Source: Candidatus Hodarchaeota archaeon (GTDB lineage: Archaea > Asgardarchaeota > Heimdallarchaeia > Hodarchaeales > Hodarchaeaceae). Taken from it: 52,303 nucleotides of DNA. The notes below the pieces were generated by a model, which saw nothing but the letters and a program-made list of their open reading frames with translations, ran no database searches and was not told the DNA's origin. How positions within the stretch are numbered: the stretch's first letter is position 1; the number at the start of each line of letters is the position of its first letter. The stretch lies in the NCBI GenBank assembly GCA_016839785.1, contig JAEOTQ010000114.1:1-52303 (forward strand), read 5' to 3'. Of the stretch, positions 3,301-14,248 are shown piece after piece. The translations under genes and the position numbers were made by a program.

Positions 3301-4482
3301 TTAGCTTTCATTATCAATCTTCAATAGGTTCAGAGTCTTTAAAGCCATCATATATTCTTCATTTGTCGGAATAACTAGTACTCCAACCTTTGATTCTTCG
3401 GATGAAATTATCTCCTCTTCATCTCCTTTCGCATTTTCATTTTTGGAAGTGTCTAGAAATGCACCGACACTGTCTATACCTCTTACTACCAGATCTCGAA
3501 AGTAAGGAGATCTTTCCCCTATCCCACCTGTGAATACAAGAGCATCTAATCCACCTAAGGTGATAAAATAAGCTCCAATATACTTCTGTATCCGATACAC
3601 CGCCATTTGGACAGCCAATTGTGCAGCATGGTTCCCCTCCTGGGAACTAATCTGAATCTCTCGCATATCTCGAAATTTTCCAGTTATTCCTAGCAACCCA
3701 CTCTTATAATTAAGTTCTTGATCAATTTGGTTTACTGACATTTCCTCTGATCGCATCATCGCTGGAATGAGGCCGGGGTCAATGTCCCCAGAACGAGTAC
3801 CCATAATAAGTCCTTCGAGTGGTGTTAATCCCATACTTGTATCAATTGACTTTCCATTGTGTAGAGCTGTGATTGATGCCCCATTACCAAGGTGGAGGAC
3901 AATCATTCTCTTAGAATTTGCTGATCCTAATATATTGAATGTTCTACTTGTTACATATTCTACGGATGTACCATGAAACCCGTATCTTCGAAAAGAGTAT
4001 TCTTCATACCACTTTTTCGGAATTGCATAGCGATAGGCATATTCTGGAATAGTACTGTGAAAAGATGTATCAAAAACTGCTATATGTGGAATCTCAGGAA
4101 GATGATTCCTACAAGCACGAATTCCGATAAGATTCGAGGGATTATGGAGTGGAGCCAACTCTGAGAGCTTTTCTATTTGATTTTCAACCTCAAGGTTGAT
4201 AATTACCTCTTTACGGAATTTTTCTCCTCCATGTACAACCCTATGAGCTACTGCATTAATATCTAACAGATTAAAAAGGTTTAATACATATTTTATTGCA
4301 TCCTCATGGTTTTTACAATCAATTTGTTCTTTAATCTCTGTTCCTTCACTATTGTGGGAAATATGTGGTTCTTTAAGACCAATTCTTTCAACTAATCCCT
4401 TTGCAGAAAGATGTCCATCCTTCATTCGATATATCGAATATTTAAGAGAGGAAGAACCGGAGTTGATTGTTAGAATATTCAA
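3301..4482 (-). CDS. ackA: Acetate kinase
   Basis: INSGSSSLKY, HRVVHGG, APLHNP, VFDTSFH, RYGFHGTS, HLGNGAS, MGLTPLEG, GTRSGDIDP, FTGGIGE, PTNEE. Confidence 0.97.
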   Translation of the reverse strand: MNILTINSGSSSLKYSIYRMKDGHLSAKGLVERIGLKEPHISHNSEGTEIKEQIDCKNHEDAIKYVLNLFNLLDINAVAHRVVHGGEKFRKEVIINLEVENQIEKLSELAPLHNPSNLIGIRACRNHLPEIPHIAVFDTSFHSTIPEYAYRYAIPKKWYEEYSFRRYGFHGTSVEYVTSRTFNILGSANSKRMIVLHLGNGASITALHNGKSIDTSMGLTPLEGLIMGTRSGDIDPGLIPAMMRSEEMSVNQIDQELNYKSGLLGITGKFRDMREIQISSQEGNHAAQLAVQMAVYRIQKYIGAYFITLGGLDALVFTGGIGERSPYFRDLVVRGIDSVGAFLDTSKNENAKGDEEEIISSEESKVGVLVIPTNEEYMMALKTLNLLKIDNES

Positions 4483-4492
4483 TCAAAACCCT

Positions 4493-5941
4493 CTAGTATG
4501 TACCTGCTTTTGAATCAGTTCCTTTAACAATAGCTATGGAAGCAGAAGCTCCTATTCGAGTCGCTCCTGCGTTAATCATCTGTTCCGCAATTTCATGTGT
4601 TCTTATTCCTCCAGCAGCCTTTACACCCATTTCAGGACCTACTGTTTTTCGCATAAGTGCAATATCCTCCACTAACGCGCCTGCAGTACTGAATCCTGTT
4701 GATGTCTTGACGAAGTCAGCTCCGCTTAATTTGGTAAGTAGACTCCCTTTCACAATTTGTTCCTTAGTAAGCAAAGCCGTTTCAAGAATAACTTTAACTA
4801 TTGCTTTCCCAGCAGCAGCATTCACAACAGCTTGTATATCCTGGCGGACAAGGTCATCATTTCCCGATTTTAACGCTCCAACATTAATGACCATATCTAC
4901 CTCCTCCGCGCCATTTGCTATGGCATCACGAGTTTCTATTGCCTTTACAGTGGGAGTTGTAGCTCCTAAAGGAAAACCTATAACAGTACATACTTTTACT
5001 GAGCTACCCTTCAAATATTTTGCGGCTTTCGAAACATTCGTTGGATTAATACAAACTGATGCGAAATTATACATAGCTGCTTCTTCGCATAACTTTTTAA
5101 TCTCCTCATCCGTCGCATCCGCCCGTAAGTTGGTATGATCGATATGCTGAGCTAAATCTATATCGTATCCATTAATCCCTGTTTCAGAGGTAATTCGAGT
5201 GGCTCCTCCATTGACTAATGCCTTGACAGCAACTTGAGATTTCCCATCTACTCCAATATCTTTTCCCGCAGTACCAATGGTATAGGAACGATTGGATGTT
5301 GTCGGAGTGTAAGGGGATGGTTCTTGATCAGACAAATTATGAACATTTACCATTCTTATTCCCATGGATGTCAACTGATCGATAACCCCGTCAATTTTTC
5401 GATTCATAGCTGGGGGCACTTGATCTTTCTCAATTTGACAGCAGTAGATAGAGTCTTGAGCAGCAATAACAGGTTTCCCATACATTAATCCAAAAACCAT
5501 TGTTATTGTGCCTAGAGAGTCAGCGTTTAATGCTGCAACCTTTGCTGCAGTATTTAAGGATAGAATAGGAACATATATTACATCAATCCGTCCTAAAATG
5601 TTGTCAAAATACTCCTCAGAATATTCAGTAATAATAGTTGCTCCTTCAGAAACTTTTCTGACATCAGGCATTCCAATAATTTTGATAGCTGCCCGAGTCA
5701 TGACTATGTACGTATTTGTATACGTTTTTGATATAATTTCTATTTGACGCATGACTTCCTCTATTTCTCGATTTCCACCACATAATAGAATTAACGCTGA
5801 GTTTCCTGAAGATATTCTATAGTTAATTTTCTTGTTAGAAGTCTGTAGATTCTGATTTGTTTGTCTCGCAGAGGAAAGATTATCTTGGTCCAATTTTCGC
5901 ATAACTTCTTCTGTTATTTTTTGAATCATCTCATTACTCAA
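4493..5941 (-). CDS. deoC: Deoxyribose-phosphate aldolase fused to an N-terminal encapsulation peptide and a flavoprotein-like domain
   Basis: C-terminal ~220 aa: [38 protein letters not shown] (Schiff-base Lys), [17 protein letters not shown]. Middle domain resembles HFCD/PF02441 ([10 protein letters not shown]...GKPVIAA). Confidence 0.92.
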
Positions 5942-5960
5942 TTCTACACCTTCCTTTTCT

Positions 5961-6251
5961 TTAACTTAATTCAGTCTGTTTACCGTCTACTTCGACATAA
6001 TCCACAACACCTACTATCAAAGCATCAACGGCAGCGTTATCATCATTCATTATACCCCGGATAGAATTTCCTTCTCGGATTACGAGGACGCAATCCCCTA
6101 TTCCAGCTCTTGATACGTCTAATGCGATGATAGAGGCGTCAGTAAACTGTCCTTTCAAATCTATCGGACGTACTACAAGTATTTTTCCATTTTCATGACT
6201 TTTAGTCTTTATTGGGGCGACGACATTCCCGATGACTTTAGCTAGAATCAT
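5961..6251 (-). CDS. BMC-P pentamer shell protein (EutN/CcmL family)
   Basis: [12 protein letters not shown]...[19 protein letters not shown]...[10 protein letters not shown]. Confidence 0.95.
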
Positions 6252-6790
6252 TCTGATTCACTCTCTGTAAGCTTAGGTTCGATTTCCTTTATCTTTTTTG
6301 TTTTTTTCTTCCTAGTAGCTCTTTTTCTAGGTTTGGACTTAGGAATTGGTTTTGATATCTCATCTACCTCAGTAGGCGATATTTTAGATTTAGGTATTGG
6401 TTTTGAAGTTATGTCGATTTCCGTGTCAATCTCTTTCTTTTTAGAAAACTGATCTAGAGGTTTTATTGTTGGTGGAGGAGCTTTCTTCTTTTTCCTCTGC
6501 TGAGGTTTTCGTTTCGCACTCTTTGTCACATAATATTCCTCTATATACCCTACAATACACTCATCGATCGGTACAAGCTCTTTAGGAAAGACAATAGCCG
6601 CTTCCTTTTTACTGACAACATACACAATATCTCCTGGTCCAGCGGTTTCAATTCCATCAGCAGCAACATAAGGGTTCCCTAAGGGTTGAAGATTATCATC
6701 CAAGCCCTGTACTACTAGAAGTCTTAAAGAATCGAGACCTGGGTCTTTCGTTGTAGCAACTACATTTCCTATTACTTTACCAAGTTTCAT
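6248..6790 (-). CDS. BMC-P pentamer shell protein (EutN/CcmL) with ~90-aa basic C-terminal tail
   Basis: [16 protein letters not shown]...VAADGIETAGPGDIV...PIDECIVGYIE, then a Lys/Arg/Pro-rich tail. Start placed at ATG 6790. Confidence 0.92.
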   Translation of the reverse strand: MKLGKVIGNVVATTKDPGLDSLRLLVVQGLDDNLQPLGNPYVAADGIETAGPGDIVYVVSKKEAAIVFPKELVPIDECIVGYIEEYYVTKSAKRKPQQRKKKKAPPPTIKPLDQFSKKKEIDTEIDITSKPIPKSKISPTEVDEISKPIPKSKPRKRATRKKKTKKIKEIEPKLTESESE

Positions 6791-6794
6791 GTTA

Positions 6795-7253
6795 TCACGC
6801 TGACTTAAGATATTTCGTTTCAATTTCAGAAATTTTATTCACTCTTGTTTCGTGCCTTCCTCCACCAAATGGAGTAGTTAACCAGATTTTTACAATATTC
6901 TGTGCTATACCAGGACCAATAACTCTTGCTCCTAAGGTCAGAACGTTGGAATTATTGTGTTCACGGGCAGAATTGGCAGTAAATTCATCAGTGCACGGAG
7001 TCGCCCTAATACCTTTGATTTTATTTGCCACAATCGCGCTAGCCACACCTGTTCCATCTATAAGTATGCCAACAGATTCTAACGAGACAGAAACAGTCTG
7101 TGCAACTAACAATGCAATGTCAGGATAATCTACAGGATCTGTAGAGTAACACCCATAATCTGACACTTCGTACCCCATTCCTTTAAGGAATTTAATCAGA
7201 TCATTCTTTAGGTGAAATCCACCATGATCGGATCCAATAATAATTTTCTTCAT
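6795..7253 (-). CDS. rpiB: Ribose-5-phosphate isomerase B (RpiB/LacA/LacB family)
   Basis: IGSDHGG, VDYPD, ANKIKGIRA, AREHNNSNVLTLGARV, FGGGRH..RV. Confidence 0.95.
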   Translation of the reverse strand: MKKIIIGSDHGGFHLKNDLIKFLKGMGYEVSDYGCYSTDPVDYPDIALLVAQTVSVSLESVGILIDGTGVASAIVANKIKGIRATPCTDEFTANSAREHNNSNVLTLGARVIGPGIAQNIVKIWLTTPFGGGRHETRVNKISEIETKYLKSA

Positions 7254-7279
7254 TTGACTTCAGCTTGTATAATTAGAGT

Positions 7280-7825
7280 TTACAGCAACGTTTTTACTAA
7301 ATCTGGATGAGGAGCAGGAATAATAGCTATAGATAATACTAAGCCTTCGCCCTTTACACGATTAACTCCCGCATCTACAGCTGCTCGTACAGCACCAACA
7401 TCTCCTGTTAAGACGACGAATGCCTTACCACCAATAGCACGACTCATTCGGATTTCGATTAAACGTACCTGTGCACTTTTAACAGCCTCATCACCCACCA
7501 TTATGGCTGTAGGAGCGGAATATGTTTCAACTACTCCTATTGCACCGACCTCATCAATACCAGTCGAACCTGCAATTGCTAGGAATACCTCAGGATGAAT
7601 ATTGGGTATTACTGTATAATTTACTAGTGTTTCACCAGCGATCTCACTTCCAGCAATTAAGGAGCTTTTAACAGCTGCAACTGCTCCCTGAATTATTATC
7701 AAATATTTCCCAGGGCATACTGGTGAGGCAAATAATAGCTCCACATCAGCAGTTTTGACTATTGTGTCTGCGCTCAATATACCACGAGCAATTACATTTG
7801 TTTCTAGAACTCCTATAGCACGCAT
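7280..7825 (-). CDS. pduT: BMC-T tandem shell protein, PduT-like
   Basis: Two BMC domains: AIGVLE...VCPGKY...G.VAAVK and AIGVVET...IGGKAFVVLTGDVGAVRAAV...IPAPHPDL. The PduT Fe-S Cys is present. Confidence 0.93.
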   Translation of the reverse strand: MRAIGVLETNVIARGILSADTIVKTADVELLFASPVCPGKYLIIIQGAVAAVKSSLIAGSEIAGETLVNYTVIPNIHPEVFLAIAGSTGIDEVGAIGVVETYSAPTAIMVGDEAVKSAQVRLIEIRMSRAIGGKAFVVLTGDVGAVRAAVDAGVNRVKGEGLVLSIAIIPAPHPDLVKTLL

Positions 7826-7870
7826 TTGATTTTCCTCTGTATTCGTTATAAGTGATGGAAGTAGTGAGCA

Positions 7871-7893
7871 TTAGCTGCCATTCTTGCAGCTAA
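7871..7893 (-). promoter_or_regulatory. Intergenic stem-loop just downstream of the main BMC-H gene
   Basis: TTAGCTGC-CATTCTT-GCAGCTAA: perfect 8-bp stem with a 7-nt loop, 8 bp after the stop codon at 7902. Confidence 0.55.
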
Positions 7894-7901
7894 ATTTCCA
7901 T

Positions 7902-8180
7902 TCAGCCTTTCTTGGGGAGAATGCTCTCAACCTCATCATGAGGTCGAGGGATTACATGAGCTGAAGTTAGTTCACCAACTTTTCTTGCAGCAACTGCGCC
8001 AGCCTCAACAGAAGCTTTAACAGCACCAACGTCACCTCTAACCATCACAGTTACGAAACCACCGCCAATAACTTCGCGTCCCATTAGATGAACGTTCGCT
8101 GCTTTCACCATTGCGTCAGCTGCTTCAATAGATGCAACTAACCCTTTTGTTTCTATTAATCCAAGTGCTTCTTTAGCCAT
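7902..8180 (-). CDS. BMC-H hexamer shell protein (EutM/PduA-like)
   Basis: [26 protein letters not shown]...[23 protein letters not shown]...HVIPRPH; canonical sequence. Confidence 0.98.
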
Positions 8181-8206
8181 TTTTTATTTCACCAATTTTT
8201 TATTTT

Positions 8207-9532
8207 TTATTTTGTCTTTTCAATGACAATTTCTTGTCCAATATGTCGGATAACTCCACTAATACTAGCATGAATTACCGCGCCTAGCGACCCATCAGGG
8301 ATCTTCCCAATGAGCGCTCCTTTTTCTACAGTCTCTCCTACTTTCACAATAGGAATAGCAGGATCACCGATATGTTGCTTGAGAGGTATAGAGACTTGTT
8401 TAACCTGTATTTTCCGTTTTTTAATTGGACAATCATGATCATAATTGAGTAAATCCAATCTTGATATTAGTCTCTTCACAGGTAGCTTTCGATATTTCCT
8501 CTCAGGATGAATCGATAGTACTTTCCGAGTATGAGTATTTTTTAACCCCTCCCCTCTCAATTGCCCTTTTACTTCTGTCATCATTTTACATGGATCTAAA
8601 CCCATAGGGCATCCATAGTATGTACAGGCTCCACATTCCACGCAGAGAAATGTTCCAGTCATATATTCAGGCCTTTCAGGAGCTCCCCATGCTATCCCTC
8701 GCATGACCTTATCAGGATATAATTCATGACCTAGTAAATATCTAGGGCATACTTCTGTACATAATTGACAGCGTATGCAAGCAGCCTTGGTAACTATTAC
8801 CTTAGATGAAATTCGTTCATTTTTCATCCTCACCACAAAATGATCCTCTGGTAAAACGATTACTCCGGAGGTTAACTTTGTAATAGGCTTTTTAGGATCA
8901 ATAATTCTACCCATCATTGGTCCGTTGATTAACACTTGATAGTCATCAATAGTGGCTCCTCCAGCGGCTTTGATAGTATCCAAGATCGAAGTACCAATTG
9001 GGAACTCCATAGTTGAGGGATTTTTTACTGCGCCTGTCACTGTTACATATCTAGACACGATTGGTTTCCCTTCAGAAGCTTCAGCAAGATTTATCAATGT
9101 ATATACATTATTCACCACAACCCCTATATCAAGTGGAAGTCCACTTTCAGGAATTATCTTTCCTAAGGCTTCGTAAACTAGAACATGTTCATCTCCAGCA
9201 GGATAAACATCTTCCAAAAGGAAAATCTCTATACGAGAATCAGCTTTAATCGCTTGTGTAAGTTTTTTAATTGCATTTTTGTATTTTCTCTTTACAGCAA
9301 TGATTCCCCTCTTTGCCCCTGTGGCTTTCATCCCTAATTGTAGTCCATGTACTAGTTTTTCAGGGTAAACTTTCATTAATTGCTGATCAACCCTTAACAG
9401 AGGTTCACATTCAGCTGCATTTACGATATAAGTTTGAACTTTCGCAGAAAGTTTCACGTGAGTGGGAAATCCAGCTCCGCCTGCTCCAACTATACCGGAA
9501 TTGCGTGCCATTTCTGCGATGGTTGAAGTCAA
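8207..9532 (-). CDS. pduS: PduS-like (RnfC-related) NADH/FMN-binding, SLBB and 2x[4Fe-4S] oxidoreductase
   Basis: GIVGAGGAGFPTHVK, NAAECEPLL, YPAGDE, GPMMG, CIRCQLCTEVCP, CVECGACTYYGCP, PLKQHIG, IHASISG. Confidence 0.92.
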   Translation of the reverse strand: MTSTIAEMARNSGIVGAGGAGFPTHVKLSAKVQTYIVNAAECEPLLRVDQQLMKVYPEKLVHGLQLGMKATGAKRGIIAVKRKYKNAIKKLTQAIKADSRIEIFLLEDVYPAGDEHVLVYEALGKIIPESGLPLDIGVVVNNVYTLINLAEASEGKPIVSRYVTVTGAVKNPSTMEFPIGTSILDTIKAAGGATIDDYQVLINGPMMGRIIDPKKPITKLTSGVIVLPEDHFVVRMKNERISSKVIVTKAACIRCQLCTEVCPRYLLGHELYPDKVMRGIAWGAPERPEYMTGTFLCVECGACTYYGCPMGLDPCKMMTEVKGQLRGEGLKNTHTRKVLSIHPERKYRKLPVKRLISRLDLLNYDHDCPIKKRKIQVKQVSIPLKQHIGDPAIPIVKVGETVEKGALIGKIPDGSLGAVIHASISGVIRHIGQEIVIEKTK

Positions 9533-9559
9533 TTAATTTAGCCTCTTCTTTTTATAACT

Positions 9560-10987
9560 CTAAATTATTCTAAACGCATCTACAAGAACACATCTTCTTT
9601 GACGTGTAAACGTTCTCGCAGATGTTATTCCTTCACCTGTTGGACCTGCTATCGTCATTGTCGTAAATCCTTCTCCTCCAAACCCGATCCCTGCTAATGA
9701 GGGAGCATTTTTTACGAATATAGTTGTCTCAATATTTTTTGCGACAAGACTCATATTGCCAACAGAATCACTCCACATCATAGCTGTATGTTTAAATCCA
9801 TGTTCTGCTTTCTTGGCTTTTTGTAAAGCTTCTTCTATTGATTTAACTCGAACTATCGGTAACACAGGCATCAGCATTTCAGATATTACAAAGGGATGCT
9901 CGTCATCAGGTACTTCGGCAATTATTAGCTTAATATTATCACTGACCTGAATGCCAATTCCCTCAAGAATCACTTTTGCATCTTTACCGATGAAGTCCCT
10001 ATTTACAATCGGAAATCTTCCTTTTTTCCCAGTGAATACAAGATTAGCTAATTGAATAATCTGATCTCCTGTAATCTCGTAGGCACCATAATTCTTCATT
10101 TCGGCTTTCAATCGATCAGTAATGCTATCAAATGCAAAAACTTCTTTTTCCACGATACAAACAATATTATTATCAAAACTTGCACCCTCTACAATCCCTC
10201 TTGCTGCTTTTTGAATATTTGCAGTATCGTCAACGATCACAGGCGGATTTCCTGGACCTGCACAGACGGTTTTCTTTCCAGATTGCATGGCAGCCTTTAC
10301 GACTGCGCTTCCTCCAGTCACTACAAGACACCTGATTTTTTTATGTGTCATAAGTGTTTGAGCTGACTCAATTGTAGGTGAAATTGTGGATGTGAGTACA
10401 TTTTCTGGCCCTCCAGCTTCAAGAATTGCCCTATTCAATAACCTTACCGCTTCATTACTCGCACGTTTTGCTGAAGGATGAGGGTTAAAAACCACACTGT
10501 TTCCTGCAGTGACCATTGATATTCCATTATTGATCACGGTTGCAGTCGGATTTGTAGAAGGTGTTATTGATCCAATTACTCCATATGGAGCCATTTCTAC
10601 AAGAGTTAGTCCCTTATCACCTGTCCAAGTGTTTGGAACTAAATCTTCCAGTCCTGGGGTTTTACGTGCGCATAGTAAATTTTTAGCTACTTTATCCTCT
10701 AATCGGCCAAGATTGGTTTCTTGAACTGCTAGTTCAGCTAGATATCGGGCGTGCTTGATTACGCCTTCACGCATAGATTGAATAATGTCTTTTCGTTTTT
10801 CGAGCGAGAGATCCATTAAGGCTATTTGGCTCTTCTCAGCTGCTTCAATAGCTTGTTCTATATCCTGAAAAATGCCTCCGCCTGCAGTTGCTGGAAGATT
10901 TTCTAATCCCGAATAAACTTGATAGGCACGAATTTTTTGTACAACAGTATTGACAATCTTGGCAATTTGTTGTTCATCATATGTCAT
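9560..10987 (-). CDS. CoA-acylating aldehyde dehydrogenase (EutE/PduP family) with N-terminal encapsulation peptide
   Basis: PYGVIGSITPSTNPT, VTGG, AGPGNPP, FDNNIVCIVEKE (catalytic Cys), EMLMPVLP, PTGEGITSARTFTRQRRC. Confidence 0.96.
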   Translation of the reverse strand: MTYDEQQIAKIVNTVVQKIRAYQVYSGLENLPATAGGGIFQDIEQAIEAAEKSQIALMDLSLEKRKDIIQSMREGVIKHARYLAELAVQETNLGRLEDKVAKNLLCARKTPGLEDLVPNTWTGDKGLTLVEMAPYGVIGSITPSTNPTATVINNGISMVTAGNSVVFNPHPSAKRASNEAVRLLNRAILEAGGPENVLTSTISPTIESAQTLMTHKKIRCLVVTGGSAVVKAAMQSGKKTVCAGPGNPPVIVDDTANIQKAARGIVEGASFDNNIVCIVEKEVFAFDSITDRLKAEMKNYGAYEITGDQIIQLANLVFTGKKGRFPIVNRDFIGKDAKVILEGIGIQVSDNIKLIIAEVPDDEHPFVISEMLMPVLPIVRVKSIEEALQKAKKAEHGFKHTAMMWSDSVGNMSLVAKNIETTIFVKNAPSLAGIGFGGEGFTTMTIAGPTGEGITSARTFTRQRRCVLVDAFRII

Positions 10988-11036
10988 TTAATTACCCACA
11001 CTTGCACATGTTCAGTTTCTTTTATTATACAAAATA

Positions 11037-11327
11037 TTATTTTCTGTATGTTTCCTTTCCATTTATTTGAATAAAATCGATTATGGCTTGAATTGTTGCA
11101 TCAGTTGGACGATCTTTTGTCATTGCAGTTAAACGAGAGGAACTTCCTGTAACAACTAAGACAAGTTCCTCTTCTCCTGCACCTACAGCATCAATTGCTA
11201 CGAATGGAGAACTCTCAGGTTTCAGATCAGTCATATCCACTGGTTGGACAATGAGAAGGGTAAAACCTTTAATGCCTGCATCTTTTTCTGTGCTAACTAC
11301 ATTTCCAATAACTTTACATACTTTCAT
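11037..11327 (-). CDS. BMC-P pentamer shell protein (EutN/CcmL family)
   Basis: MKVCKVIGNVVSTEKD...VAIDAVGAGEEELVLVVTGSSSR...PTDATIQAIID. Confidence 0.96.
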   Translation of the reverse strand: MKVCKVIGNVVSTEKDAGIKGFTLLIVQPVDMTDLKPESSPFVAIDAVGAGEEELVLVVTGSSSRLTAMTKDRPTDATIQAIIDFIQINGKETYRK

Positions 11328-11338
11328 GTTTTTATCAC

Positions 11339-12058
11339 CTAAATCTTTATAATTTTAATATCAAGAAGTTTGGCTTTTTCTTGGGCTAATGGTGTTATAA
11401 CTGTGGAATGAGGTACAAAAATTTCATGAGATTTTCCTTGTAAGCTTTCTAAATAATCTTCTGTTATTAAATCTGGTATTGATGGGGTATGTTTCATGAA
11501 TTGATCAGCCAAATCTTCAACATTAACCAATCTAAATCCCATTTCAATTAAAATTGATAACCGTCTACTTAATTCATTTGTTAACATACCAGATGGTCCA
11601 TAATCAAAAGTTAAATCCGTTGGAGGAAATGGTGTTGCTATATAGACTGGAATTTTGGATAATAATCCTTGGAGTAATAAATTGACGGTAGGATTCGAAT
11701 CTTCTAGACTAGTAACTTTTTTAGCAATTTCAAAACTAAAAGCACCATACATTATGGATTCAAGATCATTATAAAATTTTAAACAGAAATCTCCCGTTGG
11801 ATTAACAATGATATCCATAGTAGGAGTTGAACTAGCTCGTGATGTGAATTTCAAGGCTTCGTCTATCTCTTTTCTAGTCCATACAAGAATCTTCATATTT
11901 TTTTGAGCTAATCTGATAAGAGTTACAAATAATTCTTCCAACCCTTGGCCCATATGGGTTAATATTCCTAATACACTATAGGGGCCTCGTGTCTGGTTAC
12001 TTGTGAGAACATTCCGAACTTGTTGAGATACAAGTGATTCGAGTTCTTTCTCATCCAT
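11339..12058 (-). CDS. BMC-associated flavoprotein-like/PduM-like protein with N-terminal encapsulation peptide
   Basis: N-terminal amphipathic helix (ELESLVSQQVRNVL), degenerate flavoprotein-like core, and a C-terminal LITED...VITPLAQEKAK motif that I recognise from BMC-locus proteins. Confidence 0.65.
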   Translation of the reverse strand: MDEKELESLVSQQVRNVLTSNQTRGPYSVLGILTHMGQGLEELFVTLIRLAQKNMKILVWTRKEIDEALKFTSRASSTPTMDIIVNPTGDFCLKFYNDLESIMYGAFSFEIAKKVTSLEDSNPTVNLLLQGLLSKIPVYIATPFPPTDLTFDYGPSGMLTNELSRRLSILIEMGFRLVNVEDLADQFMKHTPSIPDLITEDYLESLQGKSHEIFVPHSTVITPLAQEKAKLLDIKIIKI

Positions 12059-12074
12059 AACCTTTACCTTCTAT

Positions 12075-12386
12075 TCAATCTCTACCAGGATCTTCGTGAA
12101 CACTTTGAGTAGGTAGTCTAACTTTTTCTATTAATTCAATAGTTACATTATCAGGCCGTGGAATTACATTGGTTAGAATTCCACAGGAAATTCGCCGTAA
12201 TTGTTTTTTTGCCGCATTGATTGCTTCATTAACCGCGGCTACCTCGCCTTCAATGATTACTATAACTAAACCACCAGAAACTCGTTTTAATGATATTAAA
12301 TTGATATTAGCCGCTTTTAACGCTGTATCTGTGGCCACAATTGCTCCAATACGGCCACGTGTCTCCATAAATCCTAGAGCATCCAT
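12075..12386 (-). CDS. BMC-H hexamer shell protein (divergent)
   Basis: MDALGFMETRG...DTALKAANI...GGLVIVIIEGEVAAVNEAI...VIPRPD. ATG 12386 is preceded by AGGTGA. Confidence 0.93.
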   Translation of the reverse strand: MDALGFMETRGRIGAIVATDTALKAANINLISLKRVSGGLVIVIIEGEVAAVNEAINAAKKQLRRISCGILTNVIPRPDNVTIELIEKVRLPTQSVHEDPGRD

Positions 12387-12391
12387 AAGTA

Positions 12392-14248
12392 TCACCTGAA
12401 GGGGGAATATGACTTCTCATCAAAATCCGAAATGAGCGTTCCCATGTCTCCTGTGTTCAATGCGAGGGCATTTCCCTCGTCTAAGTCTAAGTGTAACTCC
12501 AAATTATAGTCTGGATGAACTCTTACTTTAACTTCATCTAATATACCTGCACGTGTTCCTGGAAATTTAACTGCCACCATCTGTTTGTTAGATACGTTTA
12601 ATCTCTGTGAATCAGTTGGTGACATATGAATATGTCGTGCGGCAAATATTACTCCCTTGTCTAATGTAATTGCACCCTTTGGTCCCATAACATTGATTCC
12701 AGGTGTCCCCTCTAAATCCCCCGAATGTCTTGTAGGAGGGTTAATTCCTAATACATACCCATCGCTACGTGAAATTTCGATTTGTGTTTCATCACGAAAA
12801 GGGCCAAGAACTCTTACTCCGTATATTGCCCGTTTTGGACCAACAAGATCAACAACCTCCTCACAAGCAAACTCTTTACGCTGTGATAAGGAGTTAAGAG
12901 GATGCAACTTCTCTTTTTCTCCAAAAAGTTTGTGAAAATCAGTTTTAGTTAAATGAATATGCCGAGCTGATAAAGAAACTGGGATTAGCTGATCACTAAG
13001 GACTTTAGTTAATTCCTGAGTAATGATCTGCTTAACTAATTTGTCATTATTTACAACCGTATTTCTTTGTGTGATTGGTGTAAATTCACATCCTAATGGG
13101 CCACAGTATCTTCCGACATATTCCGCAGAGGGTCGATATATCACGGGTTTAATGGTTGGGGTTTCTGGGTATTTCTCTTCTAATACATGTGCGGTCCATC
13201 CAGCAACTCTAGATGTTGTAAAAATCGGAGTAAAAAGTTCTACAGGTATATTAAGACTTGTATACACTGTAGCCCCGTATAAATCCACATTAGGATAGAT
13301 ATCTCGATTTTTTCGCTTTTTAAATTCCTTTTGAGTTATATCAACCATCTGATTTGTTGTCTCGAACATCCATTGAGCAAACCCACCGTTTTTTTTCACA
13401 AGTTCTGCGGCCATTTCCTTTAATATATTAGCTCTTGGATCTATTGTTTTATAAATCGCATGTCCCATTCCCATAATTCGTTTGCCTTTATCAAAACGAT
13501 CTTTTACCCAATCTTCAACATTAGACATCTTTTTAATTTCTAAAAGGCTCTCATATACAAGATGATTTGCGCCTCCATGATATTTTCCAGATAAGGAACC
13601 TATTGCTCCTGAAATTGAAGCATATAGATCGGCTCCAGTGGAGGCTATTACTCTTGCAGTAAAAGTAGATGCATTGAAAGAATGTTCAGCATGAAGTACG
13701 AGTGTAACATCAAAAATTCGAGCCTCTTCCTTTGATGGTGTTTTTCCATGAAGCATGTACAGGAAATTTGACGCATAAGCAAGATTTTTGTTAGGGGATA
13801 TTGGTTCGTTATTGTTTCTTATACGTTCCCATGCCGTGACAATAATAGGTAGAAGAGCAATAATCCTAATAGCAATGTTACGATCAGTTTCTCTTGTTTC
13901 TGTTTCAACTTCAGCATCATATCCGGCTAAGAGGGCAAGCGATGACTGAAGGACACTCATTGAAGGGGTATTTTTTGCAGTTTTCTGTAAATGAATGAGT
14001 AATTCTGGAGGAAGCTCTTGATTTGATTTTATTGTAGACTCAAAGACTTTCAATTGATCAAAAGAAGGTAGTTTTCCATATAAGAGTAAGTATACTACTT
14101 CTTCGTAAGTTGAATTCCTTGCTAGATCCTTAATATCATACCCTCGGATGAAAAGATTTCCTTTTTCTCCTTCAATCAGGCATATATTTGTATCCGCAAC
14201 CTCAACACCACGAAGTCCAGTCGATTTGTGGCTATGTTCTTCAAGCAT
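12392..14248 (-). CDS. Citrate synthase fused to an encapsulation peptide and PduL-type phosphotransacylase
   Basis: aa ~1-395 citrate synthase (GLRGV, LHAEHSFNASTF, HGGAN, MGMGHAIYK.DPR, YPNVD, RVAGWTAH). aa ~422-618 PduL (VSLSARHIHL, VRVLGPFR, QIEISRSD, RHIHMSP, LHLDLDEGNA). Single uninterrupted ORF. Confidence 0.93.
   Translation of the reverse strand: MLEEHSHKSTGLRGVEVADTNICLIEGEKGNLFIRGYDIKDLARNSTYEEVVYLLLYGKLPSFDQLKVFESTIKSNQELPPELLIHLQKTAKNTPSMSVLQSSLALLAGYDAEVETETRETDRNIAIRIIALLPIIVTAWERIRNNNEPISPNKNLAYASNFLYMLHGKTPSKEEARIFDVTLVLHAEHSFNASTFTARVIASTGADLYASISGAIGSLSGKYHGGANHLVYESLLEIKKMSNVEDWVKDRFDKGKRIMGMGHAIYKTIDPRANILKEMAAELVKKNGGFAQWMFETTNQMVDITQKEFKKRKNRDIYPNVDLYGATVYTSLNIPVELFTPIFTTSRVAGWTAHVLEEKYPETPTIKPVIYRPSAEYVGRYCGPLGCEFTPITQRNTVVNNDKLVKQIITQELTKVLSDQLIPVSLSARHIHLTKTDFHKLFGEKEKLHPLNSLSQRKEFACEEVVDLVGPKRAIYGVRVLGPFRDETQIEISRSDGYVLGINPPTRHSGDLEGTPGINVMGPKGAITLDKGVIFAARHIHMSPTDSQRLNVSNKQMVAVKFPGTRAGILDEVKVRVHPDYNLELHLDLDEGNALALNTGDMGTLISDFDEKSYSPFR

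Follow-up and report, generated by a model that had tools for sequence, protein, structure and literature searches.

The protein encoded by the fusion gene of this locus joins a citrate synthase (CS) to PduL (PTAC) through a short helix. It is probably a bifunctional cargo enzyme of the Hodarchaeales deoxyribose-5-phosphate microcompartment, an enzyme that would offer two CoA-freeing routes, would be targeted by an encapsulation peptide (EP) and probably originated within Hodarchaeales by gene joining. The window, i.e. the whole stretch of DNA that was analyzed, comprises 52,303 nucleotides of contig JAEOTQ010000114.1; the features discussed are listed in Table 1.

Integrity of the fusion gene

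The gene is an uninterrupted 618-aa frame on the minus strand, a strand that the initial annotation did not give. Pfam assigned PF00285 (Citrate_synt) to residues 11-368 (E 1.2e-122, 409.9 bits, cut-off 27) and PF06130 (PTAC/PduL) to residues 423-597 (E 2.2e-69, 233.2 bits, cut-off 25). Both assignments are far above chance and bear out the annotated order of a full CS, a linker and a full PduL in one frame. Nothing was found in favor of an assembly or frameshift error merging two genes: no stop or frameshift lies between the domains, and the same unbroken frame is present in eight of the 83 species-level genomes of the host's class and in 30 protein clusters, 609-649 aa in length, that stem from several sources; among the best 120 protein clusters, 34 contain the two-domain frame. 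A 415-nt contig from a public run also crosses the domain junction (12843-13257) with 0 differences, 0 gaps and 0 indels reported, although it possibly derives from the window's own source sample and is thus not independent evidence for the junction. The probability of an artefact is negligible, and this explanation is already effectively refuted. In the species genomes searched, the most similar fused gene shares 84% identity; the most similar protein cluster shares 93%. The RNA library of run X8 contains contigs with 90-99% likeness to parts of the gene; they derive from a relative and were rejected as evidence for its transcription.

The AF2 model of the fusion (pLDDT 85.7) consists of two confident domains and a low-confidence stretch between them, which contains one helix (residues 402-420). 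A complex prediction for the CS dimer (residues 8-396, two copies) and the PduL domain (421-618) scored 0.00 (mark 0.32), which is uninformative either way on a CS-PduL interface.

Table 1. Features of the fusion gene and its operon (window positions)
Feature	Position	Strand	Remarks
Fusion ORF, citrate synthase + linker helix + PduL (P0001)	12392..14248	-	618 aa; stop codon 12392-12394
Citrate synthase domain, residues 11-368	13145..14218	-	H224, H263, D322, R272, R347 unchanged across 28 fused homologues
CS C-terminal arm, residues 369-396	13061..13144	-	R372; subfamily-specific YCGPxGC motif
Linker helix, putative EP, residues 402-420	12989..13045	-	corresponds to N-terminal peptide of stand-alone Asgard PduLs
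PduL (PTAC) domain, residues 423-597	12458..12982	-	Zn ligands H430, H432, E491, H539, H541, H586 invariant; R485 = phosphate contact
BMC-H shell protein H1	12075..12395	-	listed GTG start overlaps stop codon of fusion; ATG 9 nt further on
239-aa protein ('DUF' of preprint)	11339..12058	-	0 Pfam or NCBIfam matches
BMC-P vertex protein P1 (EutN/CcmL)	11037..11327	-	
Aldehyde dehydrogenase (AldDH), acetyl-CoA producer	9560..10987	-	
PduS/RnfC-like Fe-S flavoprotein (preprint's metabolosome NADH dehydrogenase, MNdh)	8207..9532	-	
BMC-H shell protein H2	7902..8180	-	
Tandem-BMC-domain shell protein (BMC-T)	7280..7825	-	
Ribose-5-phosphate isomerase B (RPI)	6795..7253	-	
BMC-P vertex protein P2	6248..6823	-	K/R-rich disordered C-terminal tail
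BMC-P vertex protein P3	5961..6251	-	
Deoxyribose-phosphate aldolase (DERA), residues 263-472	4493..5941	-	N-terminal extension ~260 aa
Acetate kinase (AK), final operon gene	3301..4482	-	

The microcompartment operon

The fusion gene opens a sugar-phosphate microcompartment operon, whose signature enzyme is DERA (TIGR00126, 287.5 bits). TPI and class II aldolase are absent from the operon, and the gene order is colinear with that of L035, L036 and L117. Du et al. (bioRxiv 2025.11.08.687404 / PMC12747264) define the type I archaeal microcompartment (AMC) by its gene set without TPI or class II aldolase and by a K/R-rich P2 tail. The operon contains this set, namely two BMC-H, one BMC-T and three BMC-P proteins, DERA (Flav-DERA in the preprint), AldDH, the PduS-like MNdh, RPI, CS, PTAC, AK and the DUF protein, and shares the K/R-tailed P2. 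By gene content it can thus be assigned to the type I AMC of the preprint, the Hodarchaeales SPU-type. The C-terminal ~43 aa of the DUF protein resemble the tail of CS forms of 500-530 aa.

Both halves retain their active sites

The CS half matches the PF00285 profile over positions 1-356 of 357 and aligns over its full length to the small dimeric CS structures 1iom (E 3e-82), 6abx, 1vgp and 1aj8. The catalytic His/His/Asp residues named in the initial annotation are present in the motifs HGGAN (H224), GHAIYK (H263) and NVD (D322). These and the oxaloacetate-binding residues R272, R347 and R372 have counterparts in solved CS structures and do not vary among 28 fused proteins, which span 61-93% identity; the cysteines C382 and C387 of the YCGPxGC motif are invariant in all 48 CS sequences. 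The functions of the catalytic and substrate-binding residues were taken from the literature; their correspondence to pig/TtCS numbering was presumed partly from motif spacing and partly from general knowledge. The invariance of these residues down to 61% identity argues for retained catalysis, and the CS half looks catalytically competent.

The PduL half covers positions 1-175 of the 176 in the PF06130 profile, scores 242.6 bits with NF011652 (cut-off 209) and aligns without gaps to 5cuo (E 3e-49). In rPduL the two Zn sites are formed by His48/His50/Glu109 and His157/His159/His204, and Arg103 is named alongside them (PMC4784909). These correspond to H430/H432/E491, H539/H541/H586 and R485 of the fusion. 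All 28 fused proteins have the six Zn ligands, with R or K at position 485. Judged by these residues, the PduL half also looks catalytically competent.

Small citrate synthases are dimers, which would suit an architectural role of the fusion, in which the CS dimer, the PduL oligomer and an aggregation-prone EP cross-link the cargo core while CS catalysis is secondary. rPduL, for its part, is a dimer without its EP and about a hexamer with it, and EPs cause aggregation (PMC4784909). However, the invariance of the examined CS residues speaks against such a role, as does the coexistence of stand-alone and fused states in close relatives, which means that the covalent link is not indispensable. 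An architectural role is very unlikely.

The initial annotation also allowed for a 2-methylcitrate synthase activity on propionyl-CoA. This caveat stands, as the best NCBIfam model for the CS half is the undiscriminating TIGR01800 ('2-methylcitrate synthase/citrate synthase II'), which the CS half matches with 412.9 bits, just below the cut-off of 421.3. 'Bifunctional 2-methylcitrate synthase/citrate synthase' models reach about 315-329 bits, and the solved 2-methylcitrate synthases 3o8j and 3tqg are among the structure matches. Against this or a different condensing specificity stands the signature enzyme DERA: the aldehyde it releases is acetaldehyde, from which acetyl-CoA is the lumenal thioester to be expected. 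In addition, the nearest relatives of the CS half are CS genes outside microcompartment loci. The use of another acyl-CoA is therefore highly improbable.

A second full-length CS was not found in the host genome, which is 84.5% complete. The fused CS as the cell's sole citrate synthase was rejected on the ordinary CS genes of relatives: an ordinary CS of 378-384 aa occurs in all four AMC-CS-carrying relatives that are at least 93% complete (G049, G057, G067 and G061), G055 has a partial one, and the five genomes without it are 71-89% complete.

The linker helix resembles an encapsulation peptide

The linker peptide, annotated at about 12990-13048, was located at 12992-13048 (residues 401-419). 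In the AF2 model the helix of residues 402-420 is predicted with low confidence (block means 53-57) and is bordered by low-pLDDT segments (365-380, 397-401 and 413-415). Its hydrophobic moment, 0.29-0.44, lies in the range of 0.3-0.5 that the methods of the preprint quote as typical for EPs (PMC12747264). Within the fusion this moment is not an outlier, as it lies at the 64th-95th percentile of the protein's own 14-residue windows, and amphipathicity alone is weak as proof of an EP. The linker also has a terminal counterpart in related loci. Stand-alone PduLs of Asgard archaea, 220-228 aa long, span 100% of fusion residues 405-618, linker included, and those designated P0193-P0201 open with the linker's pattern right before the domain start ...IPV.LSARH. 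This indicates that the linker helix is inherited from the N-terminus of PduL. As a short predicted helix with flexible flanks and such a counterpart, it behaves like a putative EP. For a representative operon the linker EP was reported to be necessary for shell association; that recruitment experiment used the operon of a different genome in E. coli (PMC12747264).

Distribution and origin of the fusion

An exhaustive search for the PF00285+PF06130 architecture recovered the fusion in one protein family only, and every member with an organism name belongs to Hodarchaeales/Heimdall. The fusion was thus found in no organism-named bacterium; bacterial PduL is fused to acetate kinase instead. Of 103 long proteins with a PduL domain that were recovered, 55 are AckA-PduL proteins (PF00871+PF06130), and the AckA-PduL proteins with organism names are bacterial (Paenibacillus, Paenibacillaceae, Syntrophales, Myxococcaceae and Lujinxingia).

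In G055 the whole operon is present in the same order, but CS and PduL are separate adjacent genes. In the rooted PduL tree all basal Asgard branches are stand-alone proteins, and the fused forms are placed in a derived clade of 18 rows (support 87/82). The tree and the gene order indicate that the split state is ancestral and the fused state derived, and that the fusion arose within Hodarchaeales by joining of adjacent CS and EP-pduL genes. Repeated, independent fusion or fission is not established: the ML PduL tree needs three changes, and a single fused clade is not rejected (AU test, p 0.241).

The initial annotation raised the question of whether the CS is archaeal and the PduL bacterial. 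For the CS half the answer is an archaeal-type lineage separate from the ordinary host CS. The CS half is most closely related to CS genes from Nitrososphaeria and Bathyarchaeia, all of them outside microcompartment loci. A microcompartment-linked bacterial relative was not found in a search that ran without the Myxococcota loci, which the preprint names as donors of the archaeal microcompartment operon (PMC12747264). An archaeal-type CS half without a BMC-linked bacterial relative means that the gene may be an archaeal-bacterial chimera. In a tentative reading, with somewhat less than an even chance of being correct, a bacterial organelle obtained by horizontal transfer took in an archaeal-lineage CS, which was then joined to a bacterial-origin PduL through the latter's targeting peptide.

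Two proposed exits for acetyl-CoA

With two competent-looking halves, an EP-like linker and a microcompartment operon, the most economical reading is that two CoA-releasing exits are fused. DERA inside the shell would form acetaldehyde, which AldDH would convert to acetyl-CoA in the lumen. The PduL half would turn acetyl-CoA into acetyl-phosphate and free CoA, and acetate kinase would use acetyl-phosphate to form ATP. Alternatively, the CS half would join acetyl-CoA to oxaloacetate, again freeing CoA, and the citrate so formed would pass out of the compartment to feed the TCA cycle or biosynthesis; entry of oxaloacetate and exit of citrate are assumed to occur via shell pores. The single amphipathic interdomain helix would target both activities to the shell and fix their ratio at 1:1, and flux would be partitioned between them in the lumen.

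Fused enzymes catalyze consecutive steps with a shared intermediate more often than competing ones, which counts against two exits. It favors a sequential assimilatory channel, in which acetate kinase and PduL run in reverse from acetate via acetyl-P to acetyl-CoA, and the fused CS uses up the acetyl-CoA at once, handing CoA back to PduL. On this view the fusion would be a module that turns acetate into citrate while cycling CoA, instead of a pair of competing exits. AckA is encoded in the fusion's own operon, and formation of citrate from acetyl-P and oxaloacetate is strongly favorable by standard free energies. However, acetyl-CoA is already supplied by the AldDH of the operon, and PduL and CS were ancestrally separate proteins. 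Moreover, PduL is established in metabolosomes as the enzyme that recycles CoA in the direction of acyl-phosphate (PMC4784909; PMC11585597). Both the channel and its reading as an acetate-to-citrate module are unlikely. The opposite direction, citrate cleavage pulled by PduL, was set aside on standard free energies, which sum to roughly +30 kJ/mol even when acetate kinase is included.

Relation to described systems

The initial annotation proposed the two fused exits and considered the architecture unknown from described BMCs. The proposal remains reasonable given the intact sites, the EP-like linker and the operon, and the authors of the preprint independently arrived at it; its novelty is superseded. 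Du et al. describe the operon, CS and PTAC, and their fusion 'in some lineages' of Hodarchaeales, state that both enzymes recycle CoA, and predict an EP linker between the domains of CS+PTAC (PMC12747264). Lineage, operon content, fusion, dual CoA-recycling proposal and linker EP are the same, with no essential difference, and the window gene is another species-level member. Thus the fusion and its interpretation are not new as a discovery. Added here are the limitation of the fusion to one family of one archaeal lineage, its derived origin by joining of neighbors with retention of the PduL targeting peptide, and an ancestry of the CS half that appears different and archaeal. A separate archaeal ancestry of the CS half versus the acquired operon was not found addressed in the preprint's main text (PMC12747264).

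The PduL half resembles rPduL (PDB 5CUO; PMC4784909) in fold family, in all Zn ligands and Arg103, and in an EP directly before the catalytic domain. Unlike in rPduL, the EP lies inside the chain, behind a CS of 400 residues. Bacterial AckA-PduL likewise joins PduL to another enzyme of acetyl-CoA/acetyl-P metabolism, but there the partner catalyzes the following step of one route and does not form an alternative exit. Small dimeric type I CS of archaea and Thermus (1IOM, 6ABX, 1VGP and 1AJ8) share the full-length alignment and catalytic residues, whereas the fusion has the subfamily-specific YCGPxGC motif, the C-terminal EP-PduL extension and a microcompartment operon. The operon shares the signature enzymes DERA and RPI, AldDH and PTAC with bacterial SPU microcompartments (PMC11585597). 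The word 'citrate' is absent from the main text of that paper, and a CS cargo seems to be particular to the archaeal form of the SPU microcompartment.

With the Hodarchaeales microcompartments, the archaea most closely related to eukaryotes possess a protein organelle of bacterial type, and citrate synthase as cargo would connect this organelle to the TCA cycle. An archaeal ancestry of the CS half bears on how hosts domesticate acquired organelles. If the gene is a chimera, a foreign protein organelle would have been plugged directly into the central carbon metabolism of the closest relatives of eukaryotes, and, as both states coexist in close relatives, CS and PduL would act as one unit whether split or fused.

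The CS-PduL fusion and its operon

The gene fusing citrate synthase (CS) and PduL heads a 14-gene operon on the minus strand. Starting from the fusion, the order is CS-PduL, BMC-H, a 239-aa protein without family match, BMC-P, AldDH, a PduS/RnfC-like Fe-S flavoprotein, BMC-H, BMC-T, RpiB, BMC-P with a K/R-rich tail, BMC-P, DeoC (DERA) and acetate kinase, the BMC genes encoding shell proteins. Exactly this operon is described by Du et al. (bioRxiv 2025.11.08.687404; PMC12747264) as the 'archaeal microcompartment' (AMC), specialised for deoxyribose-5-phosphate and with Myxococcota as donor. The K/R/P-rich BMC-P extension matches the DNA-binding disordered tail reported there on AMC-P2. The N-terminal ~260 aa of DeoC gave no Pfam match at E <= 0.001; according to the same preprint this part is a flavoprotein domain fused to DERA. 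The stop codon of the fusion overlaps the listed GTG start of the following BMC-H gene (12386-12395), with an ATG 9 nt further; the genes follow closely on each other, and their translation may be coupled. A locus of another genome (L116, on G061:C1, match at 11249-12442 of the locus) holds an AMC-type CS, 59% identical and broken by stop codons, with no microcompartment genes within ~9 kb. It looks like a relic left after operon loss, which agrees with the secondary losses that PMC12747264 proposes.

Features of the operon and the fusion gene
Feature	Position	Strand	Details
Operon	3301-14248	minus	14 genes
DeoC with N-terminal extension	4493-5941	minus	482 aa; aldolase domain, residues 263-472
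Second BMC-P vertex protein	6248-6823	minus	C-terminal extension of ~95 aa with a very high K, R and P content
Tail of the 239-aa protein	11348-11473	minus	residues 196-237 (gene 11339-12058); pattern DLITE...ITPLA...I.II; likeness to CS tails
CS-PduL fusion ORF	12392..14248	minus	618 aa
Linker peptide	12992-13048		residues 401-419
YCGPxGC motif	13088-13108		residues 381-387

Pfam analysis of the fusion protein identified a complete CS domain (PF00285, residues 11-368, E 1.2e-122) and a complete PduL phosphotransacylase (PTAC) domain (PF06130, residues 423-597, E 2.2e-69). This confirmed the single ORF with full CS, linker and full PduL proposed in the initial annotation, and the motifs and linker peptide quoted there are all present. 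Eight of 83 species-level genomes of the class, all from the genus-level group of the window, carry the same two-domain frame, as do 34 of the 120 best protein clusters. Of the 34, 30 are 609-649 aa long; their sources are NCBI, JGI, ENA and Logan assemblies. All 12 organism-named fused homologues are labelled 'Candidatus Hodarchaeales', 'Hodarchaeota' or 'Heimdallarchaeota', which places the source of the window in the Heimdall group of Asgard archaea. In addition, a 415-nt contig from a public run, possibly the source sample itself, spans 12843-13257 with zero differences to the window and no indels listed. Thus no stop or frameshift lies between the domains in the window, and with the same frame in the relatives' genomes and clusters and the junction bridged by the contig, it is hardly conceivable that the fusion is an assembly artefact.

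Catalytic residues

The CS half was aligned over its whole length with structures of small dimeric CS (1iom, E 3e-82; also 6abx, 1vgp and 1aj8). H224, H263, D322, R272, R347 and R372 are invariant among 28 aligned fused proteins (61-93% identity) and, on a motif-to-number mapping that is in part our assumption, match the residues described for CS on the acetyl-CoA side (His/Asp) and for oxaloacetate binding (His/Arg); the His-to-Arg spacing is exactly +9, as described. The initial annotation had allowed for 2-methylcitrate synthase activity, and this caveat stands, since NCBIfam models do not separate the two activities for the CS half. Such a specificity is in our estimate very unlikely. The C-terminal arm of CS also contains a YCGPxGC motif, of which C382 and C387 are invariant in 48 of 48 sequences of the CS subfamily alignment and in the 28 fused proteins. 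6abx has neither cysteine and shows a four-residue gap at the first. The two residues possibly form a disulfide or a metal site.

The PduL half aligned gap-free to the rPduL structure 5cuo. The six Zn ligands and Arg103 reported for it (PMC4784909) map to H430, H432, E491, H539, H541, H586 and R485. None of the six ligands varies across the 28 fused proteins; at position 485 either R or K occurs.

Linker peptide and putative targeting of CS

An AlphaFold2 model of the fusion (96-row alignment; mean pLDDT 85.7, pTM 0.62) contains two confident domains and, inside the low-confidence stretch between them, a lone helix at residues 402-420. The amphipathicity of the linker is moderate and unexceptional within the protein. 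Stand-alone Asgard PduLs (220-228 aa) cover 100% of residues 405-618 and start with the peptide pattern of the linker, directly before the conserved start of the catalytic domain. This homology is a stronger argument for a putative encapsulation peptide (EP) than amphipathicity. Across the 28 fused proteins, E412 does not vary and L404 hardly does. In PMC12747264 the linker of CS+PTAC is likewise the predicted EP; GFP-tagged EP-containing enzymes are reported to go to shells in E. coli, and EP deletion to abolish recruitment.

Five CS relatives of 496-534 aa (P0035, P0037, P0039, P0040 and P0041) are built differently from the fusion. In three, the peptide at the N-terminus is strongly amphipathic (hydrophobic moment 0.73-0.84), and all five carry a linker-like peptide after the CS domain and end in a ~43-aa tail resembling the C-terminus of the operon's 239-aa protein (42% identity, E 2e-6). 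This tail gave weak, sub-threshold Pfam matches to the E3-binding (peripheral-subunit-binding) domain (E 0.013-0.25) and may be a shared docking module. There are thus three or more ways in which CS is tied to the compartment system: as a fusion with EP-PduL, with its own peptides and tail, or bare beside EP-PduL. This supports CS as genuine cargo.

Distribution and origin of the fusion

A set of 103 proteins (339-1082 aa) with a related PduL domain comprised 34 CS-PduL, 55 fusions with acetate kinase (AckA-PduL) and 14 with another partner or none. Every organism-named CS-PduL was from Heimdall/Hodarchaeales; the named AckA-PduLs were bacterial. AckA-PduL fusions (PF00871+PF06130, ~560-620 aa; P0121-P0181) are frequent among bacteria, and P0143, P0150 and P0156 have an added cNMP-binding domain (PF00027). 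An exhaustive HMMER scan was run over 1.84 billion cluster representatives and the best 150 matches were examined. Both domains were matched by P0024 alone, the fusion family's own representative. The second match (P0048, 520 aa) is the CS-plus-tail form, and the remaining matches among the 150, down to 223 bits, cover the CS part only. For a bacterial protein carrying both domains, a score well above 223 bits would be expected. The domain-architecture search suggested by the initial annotation therefore places CS-PduL in one family and indicates that it is not common in bacteria.

In genome G055 the operon is complete and colinear with that of the window, with CS (P0036, 402 aa, without peptide extension) and EP-PduL (P0196, 223 aa) as separate adjacent genes, ~80 nt separating the stop of CS from the start of PduL recorded for P0196. 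A careful PduL tree was built from 14 fused, 10 stand-alone Asgard and 8 outgroup rows (32 in total), leaving out P0203, which comes from a 1,037-nt contig and is probably a fragment. The Asgard PduLs all group in a single clade (100/99). Its basal branches are all stand-alone and the fused forms all lie in a derived 18-row clade (87/82), which also holds four stand-alone forms. This indicates that the split arrangement is ancestral and the fusion derived. The maximum-likelihood tree requires three state changes, but a single fused clade is not rejected by the AU test (p 0.241), and one event or several would fit these data.

Ancestry of the two halves

Of 14 control genomes, two (E. coli and Thermotoga) gave PF06130 matches, and the three archaeal controls gave none. 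In genomes of the class, PduL is matched only where the operon is present, and the next-nearest named stand-alone PduLs are from Bacillota (~47-56% identity). The bacterial PduL half considered in the initial annotation is supported by these comparisons, which point to a bacterial origin in agreement with PMC12747264.

A second, ordinary CS, only 36-43% identical to the fused one, is encoded in many genomes of the class, fusion carriers among them. On contig C194 of genome G000 (locus L002, 1401-2210 and 2509-3528), a 269-aa citryl-CoA-lyase-like protein adjoins an ORF that is open at the contig end and looks like a citrate lyase alpha (CitF-like) protein; contig C168 encodes another CS-like C-terminal domain in a 627-aa frame. 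This genome may be able to cleave citrate too.

Among the best 80 of more than 600 pattern matches, in a scan limited to sequences with two subfamily motifs, the CS half shares 50-53% identity with CS from Bathyarchaeia, Nitrososphaeria, Methanoperedens and a Thermoproteota MAG, 48% with that of a Methanomassiliicoccus, and 45-50% with those of Thermodesulfobacteriota and bacteria labelled 'delta'. The 78 non-Heimdall loci in this set have no shell gene, PduL or other operon gene within flanks of up to 10 kb, three showing weak AldDH-family matches only; BMC-domain genes were absent from the five whole genomes tested. In a quick tree of 119 rows (without the duplicate own and fused loci L001-L012, L035 and L036 and HSPs <300 aa), AMC-type CS forms one clade (SH-aLRT 98), separate from the host's ordinary CS. 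A careful tree of 70 rows, a subsample plus 10 representatives from the HMMER scan, recovered this clade (100/99) with the long-branched Methanomassiliicoccus CS as sister (98/94), both inside a 53-row subfamily (100/99) and the host CS outside. The deeper order is weakly supported, including a clean split of archaea and bacteria (31/71). On the question of an archaeal CS half, raised in the initial annotation, the chances in this comparison, which is without Myxococcota donor loci, are about even that the CS half came from an archaeal-type lineage and was taken into the operon instead of being transferred with it. The operon transfer is said to be ancient (PMC12747264).

Function of the fusion

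The fusion is probably a bifunctional cargo enzyme, the best-supported reading, which would provide two CoA-regenerating exits for lumenal acetyl-CoA, one peptide co-targeting both activities at 1:1. A sequential channel from acetate to citrate, with PduL working in reverse, is unlikely, and a mainly architectural role of the fusion quite unlikely. The reading with two CoA exits, already given in the initial annotation, is reasonable and is the one published in PMC12747264, where CoA is freed by both CS (PF00285) and PTAC (PF06130), leading to citrate for the TCA cycle or acetyl-P for acetate kinase, and where the two genes are joined into one ORF 'in some lineages'. The novelty suggested for the architecture in the initial annotation is thus out of date: observation and interpretation both appear in this preprint of November 2025, and the fusion is a further member of the described system. 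To this description, the supplements of which (Table 3; Figs 2-10, 19, 20) may cover some of the points already, the present analysis adds the restriction to one lineage, the derivation of the fusion from adjacent genes with retention of the peptide of PduL, a probable archaeal ancestry of the CS half and an alternative, tail-type CS.
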